From an uncultured Gallionella sp. (GTDB taxonomy: Bacteria; Pseudomonadota; Gammaproteobacteria; Burkholderiales; Gallionellaceae): a DNA stretch of 64,000 nucleotides. The stretch lies in the NCBI GenBank assembly GCA_964385275.1, contig CAYLOK010000009.1:1368-65367 (forward strand). Direction: 5' to 3'. Of this stretch, positions 56,994 to 64,000 are shown piece after piece (position 1 is the stretch's first letter; every line of letters begins with the position of its first letter). Below the pieces are notes generated by a model. The model did not search any database. It was not told the DNA's origin and saw only the letters and a program-made list of their open reading frames with translations. Position numbers and translations under genes: made by a program.

Positions 56994-58469
56994 TTACAAC
57001 GCAGCCGCAATTTCCCTGAAGCTATTCAAACCCGCTTCAAGATTTTCGATGATTTCCCCCGCCAGCACATCCGGCTCCGGCAAGTTATCCAGATCGGCGA
57101 GGCTCTTGTCCTTCAACCAGAAAATATCCAGACTGGTTTTGTCGCGCGCGATGATTTGTTCGTAGCTGAATTTGCGCCAGCGCCCTTCCGGGTTTGCGGC
57201 TTCGTTCCAGCTTTCTTTGCGCTCATGGCGGTTGAGCGGGTTGTAGCTGGCGATGAAATCCTGCAAATCCTCAAAGCGCAGCGGTTTCTTTTTCAACGTG
57301 TGATGGGTGTTGGTGCGGTAGTCGTAGAACCACACCTCTTTCGTCCACGGTTCTTTGCTGGCGGCGTGGTTATCGAAAAACAGCACATTCGCCTTCACGC
57401 CGTTGGCGTAAAAGATGCCGGTGGGCAGGCGCAGGATGGTATGCAGCTCGGTGGTTTCCAGCAGCTTCTTGCGCACTGTCTCGCCTGCGCCACCTTCGAA
57501 CAGCACGTTGTCCGGCACGACGACCGCCGCGCGTCCGGTGGTCTTCAGCATGGTGCGGATGTGCTGCACAAAGTTGAGTTGCTTGTTGGAAGTGGTCGCC
57601 CAGAAATCCTGGCGGTTGTAAGTCAGATCATCCTTCTCCTGCTCGCCATCATCATTGGTGAAGCTCATCGAACTCTTCTTGCCGAAGGGCGGATTCGCCA
57701 GCACGTAGTCGTAACGTTTGCCGCCATCGGCCACCAGCGCATCGTTGGGCGACACCATGCTGTCTCCGTCGATCTCGCCGATGTTGTGCAAAAACATATT
57801 CATCAAGGCGAGGCGGCGCGTACCCGCCACGATCTCGTTACCGTTAAAGGTATCGTGTTTGAGGAATGCCTTCTGCGTCTTGTCCATCTTGTGTTCGGAC
57901 ACCAGAAAATCATAGGCCGCCAAAAAAAAGCCGCCCGTACCACAGGCTGGATCGGCGATGGTTTTCATTGGCTCAGGGCGCACGCATTCCACCATCGCGC
58001 GGATCAGCGCGCGCGGCGTGAAGTATTGCCCCGCACCCGACTTGGTATCTTCCGCGTTGCGTTCCAGCAAGCCCTCGTAGATGTCACCCTTCACATCCGC
58101 GCCCATCGTCACCCACTGCGTTTCGTTCACCATATCGATCAGGCGATACAGCTTGGCCGGGTCTTGAATCTTGTTTTGCGCCTTGGTGAAAATCGTCCCC
58201 AGCATGCCCGGCTTATTGCCCAGTTCGCGCAACAGCGTCACGTAATGCACCTCCAACTCCGCACCGCGCTTGGCCTTCAGGCTCTGCCAGTTGTACTCGT
58301 CAGGAATACCCACCTTGCGGTTATACGGCGGCTGGCTGTATTCATCTGCCATTTTCAGGAAGATCAGATAAGTCAGCTGCTCCAGATAGTCGCCGTAGCC
58401 TACGCCGTCGTCGCGCAACGTGGTGCAGAAACTCCAGACTTTGGAAACGATAGATGCGGTTGCGTTCAT
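56994..58469 (-). CDS. hsdM: Type I R-M methyltransferase subunit (locus 2)
   Basis: VWSFCTTLRDDG, GAGQYFTPR, DPACGTGGF and NPPF. ATG at 58469 has a GGAGG SD; the ORF-track extension to 58640 is translated repeat DNA. Confidence 0.95.
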   Translation of the reverse strand: MNATASIVSKVWSFCTTLRDDGVGYGDYLEQLTYLIFLKMADEYSQPPYNRKVGIPDEYNWQSLKAKRGAELEVHYVTLLRELGNKPGMLGTIFTKAQNKIQDPAKLYRLIDMVNETQWVTMGADVKGDIYEGLLERNAEDTKSGAGQYFTPRALIRAMVECVRPEPMKTIADPACGTGGFFLAAYDFLVSEHKMDKTQKAFLKHDTFNGNEIVAGTRRLALMNMFLHNIGEIDGDSMVSPNDALVADGGKRYDYVLANPPFGKKSSMSFTNDDGEQEKDDLTYNRQDFWATTSNKQLNFVQHIRTMLKTTGRAAVVVPDNVLFEGGAGETVRKKLLETTELHTILRLPTGIFYANGVKANVLFFDNHAASKEPWTKEVWFYDYRTNTHHTLKKKPLRFEDLQDFIASYNPLNRHERKESWNEAANPEGRWRKFSYEQIIARDKTSLDIFWLKDKSLADLDNLPEPDVLAGEIIENLEAGLNSFREIAAAL

Positions 58470-58538
58470 GGGTTTTCCTCCAGAAGGCCGCCATTCGGAA
58501 ATAGGTTTGGTATCAATCGCCCGCGAGAAATTAAGTGC

Positions 58539-58671
58539 ATCATTCCCGAAGCTCTCACCCCCGTCATTCCCGAAGCTCTCACCCCCGTCATTCCCGAAGC
58601 GGTTCTGATCGGGAATCCAGCCTTTAACCGGCAAAAACAATAGATCCCCGATAAAGACATTCGGGGATGAC
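58539..58671 (+). repeat. CGTC-type palindromic doublet preceded by two 24-bp half-units (element C)
   Basis: RTCATTCCCGAAGCTCTCACCCCC x2, then GTCATTCCCGA-N12-TCGGGAATCCAG, a spacer, and GATCCCCGA-N10-TCGGGGATGAC. Confidence 0.9.
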
Positions 58672-58701
58672 GGGCTGGCTGCGAAAGATCGGCTGGGCTA
58701 T

Positions 58702-58992
58702 TCAAACCAATTCTTCCCACAAATCTTTCCAAGTCGGATTCATCTTCTCGATCAAATCTATTTTCCATTGCCTGTTCCATTTTTTAAGTTGCTTCTCTCG
58801 TTCAATCGCTGTCAGCATCTGTTCATGCAACTCGTAATACACAAGCGAGTGAACTGTATATTTTTCCGTGAACCCTTCAACCAGATCATTCTTATGCTGC
58901 CAGATACGCTGAATCAGATTGCTGGTTACACCGATATACAAAGTGCCGTTGTATCCGCTCGCCAGAATATAAACCGCAGGCTGTTTCTCCAT
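58702..58992 (-). CDS. Stand-alone GIY-YIG nuclease (YhbQ/UPF0213-like)
   Basis: AVYILAS...TLYIGVTSNLIQRIWQHK, LVYYE and AIEREKQLKKWNRQWK. Confidence 0.92.
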   Translation of the reverse strand: MEKQPAVYILASGYNGTLYIGVTSNLIQRIWQHKNDLVEGFTEKYTVHSLVYYELHEQMLTAIEREKQLKKWNRQWKIDLIEKMNPTWKDLWEELV

Positions 58993-59012
58993 TGCACAAC
59001 CTCCATCAATCT

Positions 59013-59225
59013 GTCATTCCAGAAGTGACCCCACCCCGCCATTCCCGAAGCTATCACACCCCGTCATTCCCGAAGCTATCACACCCCGTCATTCCCGAAG
59101 CGTTCCCACCCCGTCATTCCCGAGACGGCTCCAACCCCGTCATTCCCGAGACGCTTCTTATCGGGAATCCAGCTTCTAACCCACCAAAACCATGGATCCC
59201 CGATAAAAACATTCGGGGATGACGG
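59013..59225 (+). repeat. CGTC-type palindromic doublet preceded by five 25-26 bp half-units (element B)
   Basis: Units start at 59013, 59038, 59063, 59088 and 59113 (GYCATTCCMGAR...CCCC). A full arm spans 59139-59172 and a second arm TGGATCCCCGA-N10-TCGGGGATGAC follows. Confidence 0.92.
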
Positions 59226-59249
59226 CTTAGACTTTGCTCAAGGTGTCAT

Positions 59250-60086
59250 TTATTTCTTCGCCAAACTTTTCTTCGCCGGAGGCAAATAGTTTTCAGCCGA
59301 AACCAGCTTCTTGCCCGTCTTGCCTTCCAGCTCCAGCCGCGCTTTTTTGGCGATACCGCCGCCGGTCTTCGCCGCAGCCTCATTCTCATTCATGCCCGTG
59401 GCATCCATGCTCTCGGCGATCTGGCGCGTGGAAAGCTCTGCCAGCGCGGTAAAAATCAATTCGGCTTCGCTCATGTGATCGCGCAGGTTTTGCGACTTCA
59501 GGCCTTTCATTTCCTTGTGCGCCTTCACATCCACTTCCGCCCATTCCTGATGAATGATGTTGGTCAGGATCGCGTATTCCTCGCCTTCCTTGATGTCATG
59601 CTCTTTCCAGTAATCGGTCAGCTTGTTGCGCGTCTCCTGCCCCGTCATGCGCTGCTGTATCCACTTCTCGCTGCGCCCGTGCTTCTGCCAGGTCTCGCGG
59701 GCTCGATCCAGAGAACGGGCGGGGTCAGCCATCTCCTGCATCCGCTCATAGCCCACCTTCGCCAGCCACAACTTAATCGGCTCCGCCTTCGGGCTGGGCA
59801 CGGACTGCACCAACCGCAGCAAAGCCTCGGCAGTGGCGACATCGGTGAGGTAATTCTTGCCATCTGCGGCAGGCAATTTCAGTCGGTGACAATTTGTCAC
59901 CGACTGACTGCCTTCCTTGCTCAGTCGCTCTTTCAGCTTGTTCCAATATTTGCGCGCTGTTTGATAATCAGGCTGCTGGGTCAACACCTGCACAATATCC
60001 ACCACCGAAAACCACCAGGTTTCCGTGGCCTCGTCATACACGCGACGGATTTTATGCTCTTCAAAAATGGCTGGTTGAGGTTGCAT
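59250..60086 (-). CDS. BRO-N domain DNA-binding protein (antirepressor-like)
   Basis: KIRRVYDE...WWFSVVDIV, RKYWNKLKERL, LRLVQSVPSPKAEPIKLWLA and NLRDHMSEAELIFTALAE. Confidence 0.85.
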   Translation of the reverse strand: MQPQPAIFEEHKIRRVYDEATETWWFSVVDIVQVLTQQPDYQTARKYWNKLKERLSKEGSQSVTNCHRLKLPAADGKNYLTDVATAEALLRLVQSVPSPKAEPIKLWLAKVGYERMQEMADPARSLDRARETWQKHGRSEKWIQQRMTGQETRNKLTDYWKEHDIKEGEEYAILTNIIHQEWAEVDVKAHKEMKGLKSQNLRDHMSEAELIFTALAELSTRQIAESMDATGMNENEAAAKTGGGIAKKARLELEGKTGKKLVSAENYLPPAKKSLAKK

Positions 60087-60103
60087 GGTCAGGACTCCTT
60101 CCC

Positions 60104-60217
60104 GTCATTCCCGCGCCCTCTTTCGTCACCCCCGCGAAGGCGGGGGTCCATGCGATTCAAAAACTGGATTCCCGCCGGAGCCTGCCCTCGAATGAATTTG
60201 TCGGGGGCGGGAATGAC
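60104..60217 (+). repeat. CGTC-type palindromic doublet with one half-unit (element A)
   Basis: GTCATTCCCGCGCCCTCTTTC, then GTCACCCCCGCGAAGGCGGGGGTCCA-TGCGATTCAAAAAC-TGGATTCCCGCC-[insert]-GGCGGGAATGAC. Confidence 0.88.
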
Positions 60218-60239
60218 GTTATAGGCGTGCAAAGTATGG

Positions 60240-61886
60240 CTAACCACGCTTGCTCCTTTTGCCAACCGCCGAGCTTTCCCCGGCAGTTGCCCGCTCCGCC
60301 TTGATGCGCGCCAGCAGTGCCGATGCGGGTTCGTCGTGCGGGTCTTGCGGCACCAGTTGGCCGGAGAAGGCTTTTTTCAGGATGGACTGGCGCAGGGCTT
60401 CGGCTTGTTGCAACGAGGTGGTGATGGTTAGTTCGAGTTGGTCAACTTCGGACAACCTTGCTGCAAGGCTTTCAATAACCACTTCAGATTCAGCACATGA
60501 ACAAATGGGCACGACTATTGATCGAATTCTTTCTTGCCCAATGTTGCGCATGGACTCTTGATTGCCTGTCGATAGCTGCATGATTTGTTTGCGCCCAAAG
60601 CGACTGCCAAGATACTGAAGGAAATATTCCTGAGAGAAGCCATCAAATCTGATGCGAAGTGTTTTATCGCTCAGCATGATTTTCTTGGTTACCTTCCTTG
60701 CAATGACGCAGGCTCCAACGAGATCAATGGTGTTTGCTCGGCTTAGAATGAAATCACCGTTCCTAATTAAATAGGCTTCATTTTCTTTCGATGCGTCAGT
60801 GCAAGTCTTGCTTTCCGATTCATCATATTCGCCCCACGTCACCGCACTTACTTTCGCGACTCCGATTTCATTTGCACGTGGTTCGCGTTCGTCACACTTA
60901 AAACTTTTCCCCGCATCAATCGACTCAATGAAGTCACCCAATTTGCACCATCCCCACCCCTGCGGCAGTTTTGGCAATTCGGCCCGCTCTTCGGCGGTGA
61001 GTGGCGGCAGGGGTTTCGGGGCTTTGGGTTTCCCAGCACGCTGGACAAGGCTGCCTTGTTTGACGTTGGCTTGCCAGTCGGCGAGTTGTTGCTGGTAGCG
61101 TTGCGCGCGCTCTTGCTGGATGCGCTTGAGCAAGGCCTGCCCGCCGGCAGGCTGGGCATCGGCGATTTCCAAACCCATATCGTCATTCCCGCGAAGGCGG
61201 GAATCCAGTTTTTCATTCGCATGGACTCCCGCCTTCGCGGGAGTGACGGAATTTTTAGTGCGGCGTTCCTCGCGCCACTGCGCAGTGAGCTTGCCCTCGA
61301 AGGCGTGTTTCAGCAAGGCCTGGCGATACACCTTGAGCTGCGCGCGGGCGGTCTTCAGGTTCTCAATGCCCTTGTCCAACTCGGAAAACAACTCCTCGAT
61401 TTTGACGACGATGCGGTGTTGTTCGGGAAGCGGCGGCAATGGAAAAGAAAACGAAGCAATATCGTTAGGCCGCACAGCCGGATAGAGTGCACCTTGTACG
61501 CATAGGCACATCTTCTCTATGAACTCCCGCGTATGCACCAGATAAAATAGAAACTTTGGCTCAACCCTTTTCGAGCGCAAAACATGAAATCCAGTCGAAC
61601 CAATCGCACCATGAAACTCAGATGTTGCCATTGCTATTGCATTCAGGTTTGGACGGGTCATTGAGATGAGAACATCTCCGCTTTGAAGCACTTGCTTAGC
61701 TCGGCTTGGTGCGGCTGTTGATTCTAGAACCTTAGCATCTGAGATACGTTTTTGCTCACGGTCTATGCTGCTTATATCAACATAGATAAATTCACTACTG
61801 ACTGGCCCGCTCCGGTCCACAGCTTCATCAGCCACTTCGCCAAGAATAGCCATAGACCAGCCATCTGGCAGCTCCACTTCACTCAT
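60240..61886 (-). CDS. hsdS: Type I R-M specificity subunit (locus 2) with long central linker
   Basis: ELPDGW, LPPLPEQHRIVVKIEELFSELD, HAFEGKLT, LPKLPQGW and ILKKAFSGQLVPQDP. The ATG overlaps the vapC stop. Confidence 0.94.
   Translation of the reverse strand: MSEVELPDGWSMAILGEVADEAVDRSGPVSSEFIYVDISSIDREQKRISDAKVLESTAAPSRAKQVLQSGDVLISMTRPNLNAIAMATSEFHGAIGSTGFHVLRSKRVEPKFLFYLVHTREFIEKMCLCVQGALYPAVRPNDIASFSFPLPPLPEQHRIVVKIEELFSELDKGIENLKTARAQLKVYRQALLKHAFEGKLTAQWREERRTKNSVTPAKAGVHANEKLDSRLRGNDDMGLEIADAQPAGGQALLKRIQQERAQRYQQQLADWQANVKQGSLVQRAGKPKAPKPLPPLTAEERAELPKLPQGWGWCKLGDFIESIDAGKSFKCDEREPRANEIGVAKVSAVTWGEYDESESKTCTDASKENEAYLIRNGDFILSRANTIDLVGACVIARKVTKKIMLSDKTLRIRFDGFSQEYFLQYLGSRFGRKQIMQLSTGNQESMRNIGQERIRSIVVPICSCAESEVVIESLAARLSEVDQLELTITTSLQQAEALRQSILKKAFSGQLVPQDPHDEPASALLARIKAERATAGESSAVGKRSKRG
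61182..61247. repeat. CGTC/dRS3-like palindromic doublet in frame in hsdS
   Basis: GTCATTCCCGCGAAGGCGGGAATCCA-N14-TGGACTCCCGCCTTCGCGGGAGTGAC: 26-bp arms with 2 mismatches, 66 nt in total, translated VTPAKAGVHANEKLDSRLRGND. Confidence 0.92.
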
Positions 61887-62272
61887 CACCACACGACCGG
61901 AACTGAATAAGCTGCGAACGCATGATCGACAGAGACGATGGTCATGCCTTCCACAACGGCCTGGGCAATGATCAGGCGGTCAAATGGATCTCTATGATGC
62001 TGTGGTAATTGTTCCAGATAGCTTATGTGCGATAACTCGATCGGCAATAATTTTATGTTATTTTCAAGCGTATTTTTATTCACCAACTCTTCAATTGGCA
62101 TGGCTAATGATAATTTATCGAGCTGGCTTTTGATTTGCATTTCCCAAGGCGAAGCCATACTCAAATAAAATTCATGCGCGCCCGAGCTGCATAAGTCCTG
62201 CACTGTTTTGGAAAGTCGTTCAGGGTCATCGTTGAGCCAGAGAAAAACGTGGGTGTCCAGCAACAACTTCAT
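61886..62272 (-). CDS. vapC: PIN-domain (VapC-like) toxin
   Basis: MKLLLDTHVFLW, SMASPWEMQIK and HRDPFDRLIIAQA. Confidence 0.9.
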   Translation of the reverse strand: MKLLLDTHVFLWLNDDPERLSKTVQDLCSSGAHEFYLSMASPWEMQIKSQLDKLSLAMPIEELVNKNTLENNIKLLPIELSHISYLEQLPQHHRDPFDRLIIAQAVVEGMTIVSVDHAFAAYSVPVVW

Positions 62273-62493
62273 AACTTGCCTTCCAACCAAAAACTTTCTG
62301 GCAATGGCTCATTAAAGTCATCGCTCATTTTTATAAGCCCTTGAAATAATCCCAATTTTAAGGGCTTAGATGGCTGTGCGATTTCTTCATACATGACGAT
62401 TACTCGCGCTTTATGTGCTTGTATCGTTTTGGGTAATTGCAAATGAATTTGCTGGTTGAAATCAATTTCCACTGGGAATTCGAGGGCGTGCAT
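62269..62493 (-). CDS. Putative antitoxin partner of the PIN toxin
   Basis: A 74-aa gene overlapping the PIN gene. The C-terminus KLGLFQGLIKMSDDFNEPL is typical of DUF2281-like partners. Confidence 0.7.
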   Translation of the reverse strand: MHALEFPVEIDFNQQIHLQLPKTIQAHKARVIVMYEEIAQPSKPLKLGLFQGLIKMSDDFNEPLPESFWLEGKL

Positions 62494-62552
62494 GGCGGTT
62501 TTCCTTTCAAACTAGGTTCATCTGGATTGTAGCAAGCTATCCGTGCCGGCAG

Positions 62553-62601
62553 ATAGGAAGCCGCATTTTATAGCGGCAAGTCGGGTTAAAACCCGCCCTA
62601 C
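62553..62601. repeat. GTAG-type REP with degenerate partner hairpin
   Basis: 62580-62601 reads GTAGGGCGGGTTTTAACCCGAC on the minus strand. The adjacent hairpin GCCGC-ATTTTATA-GCGGC is at 62560-62577. Confidence 0.65.
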
Positions 62602-62607
62602 ATATAT

Positions 62608-64000
62608 TCATGCAACCAGTACCTCGTTGAGTTCATCCAGCAACGTATCCATCTTCGCGCCGAACAACTGATACATTTTGCCCAGCCCGCCCTGTCCGAA
62701 TGGTGGATCTTCAAGCTCATCACGTTCAATGTGAAATGAAATAGCAACGTGGTCGCGCACCATGCGCAGCCAGTCCATTTGTTCCTCGTTGAATTTTTCT
62801 GTGCCGCCGGAGTGGTGTTTCATAATCCAGTTTCTAAAGTTGCGGCGCACGGTGGCATCAAAGTCGGTGAGCGTTTCATCCATGCCGCACACGCGGCGGA
62901 TGAGCGCCACGAGTGCAGTCAACTCACTGACTGGATTCCCGCCTGCGCGGGAATGACGAGCTGTTTGGGCTTCTAAGCGTTGATAAGCTTGCCACACATA
63001 CAAGGGGGCGAGCTTGGGTTTGTCGGTTTTGAGTTTATCCAGCACCTGGCGGATCAGGTCGTAGCTGAGTTCGCGCCTGCGATACGGCTGGCTGAAGAAG
63101 ATGGTGAGGGCGGCGATGTTGTCTTGGTTCGCCTTTAAGTATTCGGCGAATTCGTCGGCGATGGCTTGCGCGTGGTCGGCCATGTTCGCTTCCCAGCCCG
63201 CGCCCAACACGGTGTCGAGTGTGTCGTGGTCTATGGTTTGTTCTTTGTCGCGGCGGATGGTGTCGAGCAGTTCCACCAGTTCGCCATTCAGCACGCTGGC
63301 GACTTCTTGTACCAATTGCTGCTGCGCCAGTTCGCGTTTTGCGTCGCCGGGGTCTGTGCCGATTGGCTGGCCTGCGAGTTGCAGCGCGCGGGCTTCGATG
63401 TTGTCGGCATCAATCGCGCCGAATAGCTGGCCGACGAGTTGGTTGAGTTCCAACCCGCCTGCGGCTTGCCGAATCATGCGCTGGTCGTCGGCATCCAGTT
63501 GTTTGTTGAGCCGCGCCAGGCGTCCGGCCAGAGATGACACGGTGTCTTCGTCCGTCGCGCCCATCATCACCTGCATCGCCAAATCTTTAAGCGGCACGGT
63601 GGGTTTGGTGATGAGCGGCTGGCTGGCGGTCTTGAGTGATTTGGTGACGCCGATGGCATCGACGATGACATAGTGGGTCTTGGCGCTGACGGCGGAGGGG
63701 GTGACTTTGCGCAGGTCGTCGATGTCCAGCGTGCGCGTGCCGCGCCCTTTCATCTGCTCGAAGTAGTTGCGGCTTTTCACGTCGCGCATGAACAACAGGC
63801 ATTCCAGCGGCTTCACGTCCGTGCCCGTGGCGACCATGTCCACGGTGACGGCGATGCGCGGGTAATACTCGTTGCGGAATTGCTGCAATACCGACTTGGG
63901 GTCTTCGTCGGTTTTGTAGGTGAGCTTTTTGCAGAACGCATTGCGCTCGTCGAATTCCTCGCGCACGGTCTGGATGATGTCGTCGGCGTGGCTGTCGGTC
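62608..64000 (-). CDS. hsdR: Type I R-M restriction subunit (locus 2), 5' part outside the window
   Basis: RIAVTVDMVATGTDVKPLE, SRNYFEQMKGRGTR and an EcoEI-like C-terminus (QGGLGKMYQLFG...LDELNEVLVA). The frame is open to the window edge. Confidence 0.92.
   Translation of the reverse strand, partial: TDSHADDIIQTVREEFDERNAFCKKLTYKTDEDPKSVLQQFRNEYYPRIAVTVDMVATGTDVKPLECLLFMRDVKSRNYFEQMKGRGTRTLDIDDLRKVTPSAVSAKTHYVIVDAIGVTKSLKTASQPLITKPTVPLKDLAMQVMMGATDEDTVSSLAGRLARLNKQLDADDQRMIRQAAGGLELNQLVGQLFGAIDADNIEARALQLAGQPIGTDPGDAKRELAQQQLVQEVASVLNGELVELLDTIRRDKEQTIDHDTLDTVLGAGWEANMADHAQAIADEFAEYLKANQDNIAALTIFFSQPYRRRELSYDLIRQVLDKLKTDKPKLAPLYVWQAYQRLEAQTARHSRAGGNPVSELTALVALIRRVCGMDETLTDFDATVRRNFRNWIMKHHSGGTEKFNEEQMDWLRMVRDHVAISFHIERDELEDPPFGQGGLGKMYQLFGAKMDTLLDELNEVLVA
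62931..62957 (-). repeat. Single CGTC/dRS3-like palindrome in frame in hsdR
   Basis: Minus strand reads GTCATTCCCGCGCAGGCGGGAATCCAG (ATTCCC-N8-GGGAAT), translated RHSRAGGNP. Confidence 0.9.

Follow-up and report, generated by a model that had tools for sequence, protein, structure and literature searches.

The palindromic elements of Rickettsia (RPE-1 and others) were reportedly described in protein-coding genes by Ogata and co-workers in 2000. They are selfish, lie in frame in genes that stay functional and usually occupy surface loops, and in these features they appear to resemble the insert in the type I R-M specificity gene hsdS described here. Classical RPE-1 elements are about 100–150 bp long and unrelated in sequence to the hsdS element, and to our knowledge its counterpart is the short RPE-6 class alone. 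RPE-6 of Rickettsia conorii has been equated with dRS3 of Neisseria and with the CGTC-1 class of REPs (Di Nocera et al. 2013, PMC3733652), which are defined by a CGTC tag, an 8-bp stem usually starting with AT, a 4-nt loop and a CCA tail, and which occur mostly as inverted dimers. The CGTC-1 REPs are multi-copy, no dedicated transposase is known for CGTC REPs, and occasional in-frame intragenic dimers encode 20–30 aa of the VIPAKAGI / DSRFRGND type (PMC3733652); the intragenic peptides of R. conorii in the supplementary list of that study include VIPAKAGI, SFPRKRES and ...LDSRFRGND, and hsdS is absent from its list of REP-bearing ORFs. CGTC-1 is a very widespread, multi-copy and presumably mobile palindromic repeat. 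REPINs are likewise built of two inverted REPs with a short conserved spacer, together forming one long hairpin, and they carry a GTAG tag; their mobility comes from RAYT transposases of the Y1/HUH type, with whose gene they are associated (Bertels and Rainey 2011, PMC3116915). In type I HsdS subunits, a change of length in the inter-TRD region is known from EcoR124I/II, where a 4-aa TAEL repeat within the D1 dimerisation helix adds about one helical turn and so changes the length of the coiled-coil helix (PMC3874165).

The hsdS gene considered here (60240–61892, minus strand) lies in a 64,000-nt stretch of DNA from an uncultured Gallionella sp. (hereafter the window) and is an intact ORF of 550 aa; unless stated otherwise, residues are numbered as in P0001, the window HsdS counted from its second Met (548 aa). 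A Methylase_S domain was found in the 550-aa ORF (Pfam, 1.3e-11), and the closest sequence matches in the PDB were the Thermoanaerobacter tengcongensis HsdS entries 5YBB_D/3OKG (1.7e-45), with 2y7c also matched. The AlphaFold2 (AF2) model, built from an alignment of 96 homologues, has a mean pLDDT of 91.9, and its top Foldseek match is 5ybb_D, with a TM-score of 0.84 on target length. Taken together, Pfam, PDB, AF2 and Foldseek describe an HsdS with two TRDs and two long coiled-coil helices, encoded in an hsdR/M/S operon, and the domain order is TRD1, the D1 helix, an extension of about 115 aa, TRD2, the D2 helix and a C-terminal helix. The three hsd genes form one minus-strand operon, in which hsdR, of the EcoEI_R_C type (62608 to beyond 64000), is followed by a small ORF with no Pfam match that is a possible antitoxin (62269–62493), a PIN toxin gene (61886–62290), hsdS, a Bro-N gene (59250–60086), a GIY-YIG gene (58702–58992) and hsdM (56994–58640), all on the minus strand.

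The preliminary description of this DNA reported a palindromic repeat of mobile type, in frame between the two TRDs of HsdS, and this reading holds. Translation of the 550-aa ORF places the in-frame 66 nt at 61182–61247 (minus strand), where they encode VTPAKAGVHANEKLDSRLRGND, 22 codons without a stop (residues 216–237 of the 550-aa ORF; 214–235 in P0001). Since the length of 66 nt is divisible by 3 and four of the six frames of the element are stop-free, it is unsurprising that the ORF stayed open. The insert consists of two CGTC-1 type REP hairpins in inverted orientation. As DNA, the doublet spans 68 nt (61181–61248, with no strand assigned) and consists of two inverted arms of 27 nt each (61181–61207 and 61222–61248), 93% complementary and separated by a 14-nt spacer. 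Within each arm, a perfect 8-bp stem encloses a 4-nt loop (ATTCCCGC-GAAG-GCGGGAAT and ACTCCCGC-CTTC-GCGGGAGT), giving the order CGTC, 8-bp stem, GAAG loop, stem, CCA, 14-nt spacer and inverted copy. The tags (CGTC at 61181–61184, its complement GACG at 61245–61248) thus point outward and the tails (CCA at 61205–61207, TGG at 61222–61224) inward. The only departure from the CGTC-1 definition is a minor one, namely that the second arm begins with AC rather than AT. The repeat is also multi-copy and dispersed, with a further doublet and a singleton in the window and with copies in the source metagenome and the genome collection. A degenerate pattern of the whole doublet had no match in 100 shuffles of the window, and the 16-nt core was matched 4 times against 0.12 expected. 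The suggested likeness to the palindromic elements of Rickettsia thus holds in a well-defined sense, because CGTC-1 has been equated with RPE-6 of R. conorii (PMC3733652), whose encoded peptides are similar. The doublet shares its layout with REPINs, and we rejected membership of the REPIN/RAYT group, the tag being CGTC and not GTAG. Relative to the published CGTC-1 cases (PMC3733652), the hsdS insert differs in its host, a groundwater metagenome bacterium, in its target gene and in the AC of one arm.

The insert does not directly follow HAFEGKLTAQWREE, as had been stated; six codons, RRTKNS (61248–61265, minus strand), intervene after ...AQWREE. These extra codons, to the left of the doublet, are missing from empty-site alleles and have the counterparts RRTNNS, RRAKQS and HRAKQS in the homologues P0004, P0019 and P0008. 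To the right of the doublet are three further codons, DMG (61173–61181, minus strand), a position at which EP or KP is found in the other filled alleles. The NQDK of insert-less homologues is thus replaced in the window allele by RRTKNS, the 22 REP codons and DMG, a net gain of 27 aa at this site (site 1). The linker holds two more in-frame extras of 21 nt (7 codons) each: AQPAGGQ (61137–61157, minus strand), which is found in the window allele only and whose codons overlap a small palindrome at 61136–61155, and SLVQRAG (61032–61052, minus strand), which is also present in P0004.

To place the insert among its relatives, the segment from GKLT to ALLKRI was measured in the 96 aligned homologues, those that are named being from Nitrosomonas, Gallionella and Methylobacter MAGs. 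The segment is 16 aa long in 82 homologues (typically AQWRAENQDKLETADA) and 15 aa in three, so that 85 of 96 are without an insert at site 1; it is 19 aa long in four and 34–57 aa in seven. Six of the seven long segments (P0001, which is the window allele, P0004, P0005, P0007, P0008 and P0019) are of the V[TA]PAKAG...RGND type, in identical position and frame, and the seventh, in P0039, holds three small, unrelated hairpins. About 30 residues downstream, at site 2, a different long palindrome (e.g., SPSIPLLQRGK...PPLEKGGLGG) occurs in about 10 of the 96; the site-2 insert of P0020 is an inverted repeat at the DNA level. Overall, the inserts taken up by this HsdS linker measure 18–41 aa and belong to at least three palindrome families that are unrelated to one another. 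All matches to a 130-aa linker protein query were short fragments or partial HsdS ORFs; they included three additional insert-bearing sequences, which were left out of the counts.

The six insert-bearing alleles have six unrelated TRD1s (11–25% identity) and a single TRD2 type (87–95%), and therefore the insert-bearing linker has passed through, or arose in, many TRD combinations with its ORF kept. The hairpins have been kept as well, since stem differences between alleles are compensatory in the DNA alignment, which hints that hairpin structure is upheld, slightly beyond pure neutrality, either through selection or through conversion by copies elsewhere in the genome. When filled and empty alleles were aligned as DNA, a clean target-site duplication was not found; filled alleles have other sequence in place of AATCAGGACAAA, and their right end (AATGACGAACC) is similar to the empty site. 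The insert boundaries are accordingly ambiguous, and the distribution fits either a single ancestral event that recombination has spread or several independent insertions. An empty-site version of the window allele was not found among the source-metagenome contigs, where the joints, one of them in an RNA run, belong to related hsdS alleles. One natural pair is P0005, with the insert, and P0006, without it, which share about 91% identity when the gap is set aside; differing almost only by the insert, they offer a clean test of any role of the post-D1 loop in type I specificity or assembly.

In the AF2 model, the central conserved helix D1 (LPEQHRIV...LLKHAF; 61299–61430, minus strand; residues 153–196), the part that sets TRD spacing, terminates at the F of the conserved AFEGKLT, and the insert starts 12 residues past this motif and 18 past the end of D1. 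Between them is a short helix, AQWREERRTKNS (residues 202–213), and after it comes a coil with the 22 REP codons and DMGLEIADAQPA (residues 214–247), with 10-residue pLDDT means of 74/56/49/60; the low values over the insert may be due in part to its sparse coverage in the alignment and not to true disorder. A confident helix, GGQALLKRIQQERAQRYQQQLADWQANVK (residues 248–276), precedes TRD2, which begins at residue 312; D2, the antiparallel coiled-coil partner of D1, follows at residues 464–506 (60369–60497, minus strand) and the C-terminal helix at residues 521–545. The homologue P0002, which has the two TRD types of the window protein (65% and 82% identity) without the insert, was modelled with D1 at residues 153–196, D2 at 424–467 and a confident loop region. 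The lengths of D1/D2 are 44/44 residues in P0002 and 44/43 in the window protein. The HsdS chain solved in 5YBB/3OKG stops at AFRGDL, the sequence aligned to AFEGKL. On the grounds of the AF2 helix positions, the P0002 model and this chain end, the insert is placed outside the coiled coil. An AlphaFold check had been proposed earlier on whether the insert extends the coiled coil, and the models point to no such extension, with helices near-equal in the two proteins and the insert itself a low-confidence coil.

We consider it likely that HsdS tolerates the REP pair as a passenger in a permissive loop, and that the specificity subunit still works with its half-sites and spacer unchanged. The pair would have become fixed, in frame, within a surface loop that is permissive and probably disordered, between D1 and the family-specific helical extension that precedes TRD2, and most likely loops out because it is outside the D1/D2 coiled coil; the recognition half-sites and the spacer would then stay as before. 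We infer all three elements of this reading, i.e., the looping out, the active enzyme and the unchanged specificity, and an added loop could affect assembly if the post-D1 extension, of roughly 75 aa, contacts HsdM or HsdR. The preliminary description had favored a different outcome, in which the link between the TRDs becomes longer or looser through the insert, so that the same half-sites are recognized with a different or relaxed spacer and a selfish repeat generates new restriction specificity. The part of its EcoR124I/II precedent that stands is that the length of the HsdS central region governs the spacer (PMC3874165); the insert does lie between the TRDs in primary sequence, and alleles that carry the insert have lasted in combination with many TRD1s and are thus not simply dead. 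The part that does not carry over is the location, because TAEL is 4 aa within D1, whereas the hsdS insert adds 22–27 aa in a loop beyond it, at residues 214–235 in predicted coil, with no length change inside D1 and with the predicted helix lengths nearly the same in the presence and absence of the insert. The solved chain, moreover, stops at the equivalent of the D1 end, and a length-critical ruler is hard to reconcile with a loop that holds 18–41-aa inserts of several palindrome families. A retuned or loosened spacing is therefore unsupported, and we regard it as very improbable. It is also unlikely that the insert marks a decaying R-M system, with HsdS and the REP-bearing HsdR inactive or becoming pseudogenes, although HsdS has three in-frame extras, HsdR has two REP sites, REP-like arrays lie upstream of hsdM, and fragmentary REP-bearing hsdS ORFs, ended by an early stop or cut at a contig end, exist in the databases (P0121, P0123 and P0142). 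Against decay, all three hsd ORFs of the operon are intact and full-length with complete domains, every indel in hsdS is a multiple of 3, and the HsdS fold is modelled with high confidence. All six insert-bearing alleles are intact ORFs; among loci with the whole gene on the contig, hsdM and hsdR are full-length at the window and P0004 loci, and for P0008 the ORFs called as hsdR and hsdM, with 926 and 492 aa, respectively, have the usual length. Substitution patterns point the same way. Between the window allele and L004, both with the insert, TRD2 has a dS of 0.625, a dN of 0.031 and a dN/dS of 0.05, a signal that may partly predate the joining of TRD2 to the insert because hsdS alleles recombine, and TRD1 has a dN/dS of 0.13 between the window allele and P0016. 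TRD2, downstream of the insert, thus appears to be under strong purifying selection. Together with the in-frame indels, the intact ORFs and the many TRD combinations, this argues, short of proving activity, for an insert tolerated in a working protein.

A further alternative is that the insert acts on nucleic acid. For the sense-strand RNA of the element, the fold is one very stable 27-bp hairpin with −53.3 kcal/mol (z = −9.6), and the element folded as DNA reaches −30.9 kcal/mol; such a structure might lower or tune HsdS output through ribosome pausing or RNase III cleavage. It might also lead to an N-terminal half-HsdS (TRD1 plus D1) that dimerises on a symmetric site, a behaviour known from engineered truncated forms of EcoR124I and EcoDXXI; the insert comes exactly after D1, and S subunits truncated there are active (PMC3874165, Table 2). 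The compensatory stem changes among alleles, which preserve the hairpins, are in line with such a role, but the same conservation is expected anyway if the copies are homogenised with genomic REPs. In addition, no intrinsic terminator was found at the insert on the sense strand, a terminator-like site (the first REP and then T5) being present on the antisense strand only, and the apparent purifying selection on TRD2 indicates that full-length HsdS matters. We therefore doubt that either effect explains the insert, while a side effect of the 27-bp mRNA or single-stranded DNA hairpin, such as slower translation, attraction of RNase III or replication stalling, is plausible beside a tolerated passenger. 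If the hairpin did affect hsdS expression or recombination, selfish repeats would be linked to defence diversification, although no finding requires this. With at least three palindrome families at two sites in about 17 of the 96 homologues, the post-D1 loop may even be a preferred landing pad for hairpins, which would stimulate TRD-shuffling recombination or, through the 27-bp mRNA or single-stranded DNA hairpin, yield a TRD1-D1 half-subunit with symmetric specificity; we give this idea very little credence, but if it were true, selfish repeats would diversify restriction specificity indirectly and not via a change of spacer.

The intragenic CGTC-1 dimer is a known kind of event, and in-frame REP or RPE insertions in working genes have already been documented. 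To this record the hsdS case adds a defence gene, with HsdS and the HsdR of the same operon both affected, and our literature search found no earlier report of REP or palindromic repeats in hsdS. It also adds a single linker, of one HsdS family, that has repeatedly absorbed palindromic repeats. For annotation, such inserts should not be taken for new domains or for changes in specificity.

Other copies of the repeat are present nearby. A second doublet (60124–60218, plus strand) occupies the intergenic region between hsdS and the Bro-N gene, about 1 kb from the hsdS insert; its spacer, CCATGCGATTCAAAAACTGG, is similar and the second of its hairpins is longer by about 30 nt. In HsdR, REP inserts occur in frame at two sites, and one of them is a single CGTC-1 unit within the EcoEI_R_C domain (62925–62958, no strand assigned), where the window protein has RLEAQTARHSRAGGNPVSELT and three homologues have RLD------DYKGAQPVQELT. 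REP-like arrays were also seen upstream of hsdM, where they neighbour the small GIY-YIG gene. In the wider genome collection, a GIY-YIG homologue was present at one of the 120 CGTC-1 doublet loci listed, and a general linkage between GIY-YIG genes and doublets was not found among them. Using a strict pattern against species-representative genomes, the doublet was matched in at least 120 genome stretches from many phyla, the hosts among the matches listed including CPR bacteria, Brocadiia, Planctomycetes, Sporobacter and alpha-, beta-, gamma- and delta-proteobacteria. An insert of this kind is also present in the IcmF-like mutase in L125 (VIPAKAGIHADDMDSRLRGND). In the source groundwater metagenomes, the arms have a contig word depth of about 9500 compared with about 69 for the hsdS flanks, and the element is present on hundreds of contigs.

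In-frame repeat inserts pepper the entire R-M operon. All eight exact matches to CGTCATTCC and all four REP cores in the whole 64-kb window lie inside the R-M locus (58500-63000), with none of either in the remaining 58 kb. The GC content of the 58500-63000 interval is slightly lower, at 0.53 vs. approximately 0.56 in the rest of the window.

In hsdR (62608-63966, minus strand), a single unit of the CGTC-1 hairpin repeat is inserted in frame at 62925-62958, within the EcoEI_R_C domain, where the window protein reads RLEAQTARHSRAGGNPVSELT and three homologous HsdR proteins read RLD------DYKGAQPVQELT, i.e., a net gain of 6 aa relative to these homologs. The HsdR of the window operon also carries a second, much longer in-frame REP-like block of ~105 aa, flanked by EEINPAE and LPVVYNEK, which lies just past the window end on the same contig (approximately nt 60-375 of L001, corresponding to window coordinates ~64512-64827). 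At the same EEINPAE/LPVVYNEK site, the REP block is ~51 aa in the HsdR of L004, the locus of an insert-bearing HsdS, and is absent from the HsdR of a further locus (L007).

Also within the R-M locus, a gene encoding a 96-aa GIY-YIG nuclease (58702-58992) is bracketed by direct composite repeats (58540-58672 and 59013-59223), in each of which a hairpin region (GGGAATCC...GGGGATGACGG) comes after tandem units of 24/25 nt (CCCCGTCATTCCCGAAGC...). A similar arrangement is found in a Nitrosomonas MAG (L129, 3690-4440), in which this gene is again found between hsdS and hsdM, flanked on each side by comparable CGTC-like hairpins, and at a further locus (L017) a GIY-YIG homolog is located 16 nt from a CGTC-1 doublet. 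A GIY-YIG homolog is present at only 1 of the 120 REP loci examined. No dedicated transposase is known for CGTC REPs (PMC3733652), and our literature search found no paper linking GIY-YIG nucleases to REPs.

The longest hsdM ORF (56994-58640, minus strand, 548 aa) starts within the tandem repeat array, so that its N-terminal 57 codons (~58470-58640) would give an N-terminus of FGNDGGESFGNDGGESFGND. Because hsdM is called as a 491-aa gene on another contig copy, the true start is probably the downstream MNATAS..., and the N-terminal stretch encoded by the repeats likely reflects an annotation error.

Palindromes unrelated to CGTC-1 occupy the equivalent linker in two other HsdS homologs: three small GC-rich hairpins, with the motif CGCCTGTCTGCCGACAGGCAGGCG present twice, in P0039 (L135), and an inverted repeat of ~90 nt (AATCCCCCTCAATCCCCCTTTT...AAAAAGGGGGGCTAGGGGGGATT) in P0020 (L134). 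The CGTC-1 doublet itself, as in hsdS, is also found in frame (VIPAKAGIHADDMDSRLRGND) at 1267-1329 of L125, within an ORF of 1145 codons. On visual inspection, we take this ORF to encode a putative IcmF-like protein in which a G-protein chaperone is fused to a methylmalonyl/isobutyryl-CoA mutase.

Between hsdR and hsdS lies a PIN-domain toxin gene (61886-62290), overlapped upstream by a small ORF (62269-62493) that has no Pfam match and is possibly the antitoxin of the PIN toxin. Related loci carry other small cargo at this position, namely a DUF559 gene (L129) and a nucleotidyltransferase pair (L008, the locus of an insert-less HsdS).
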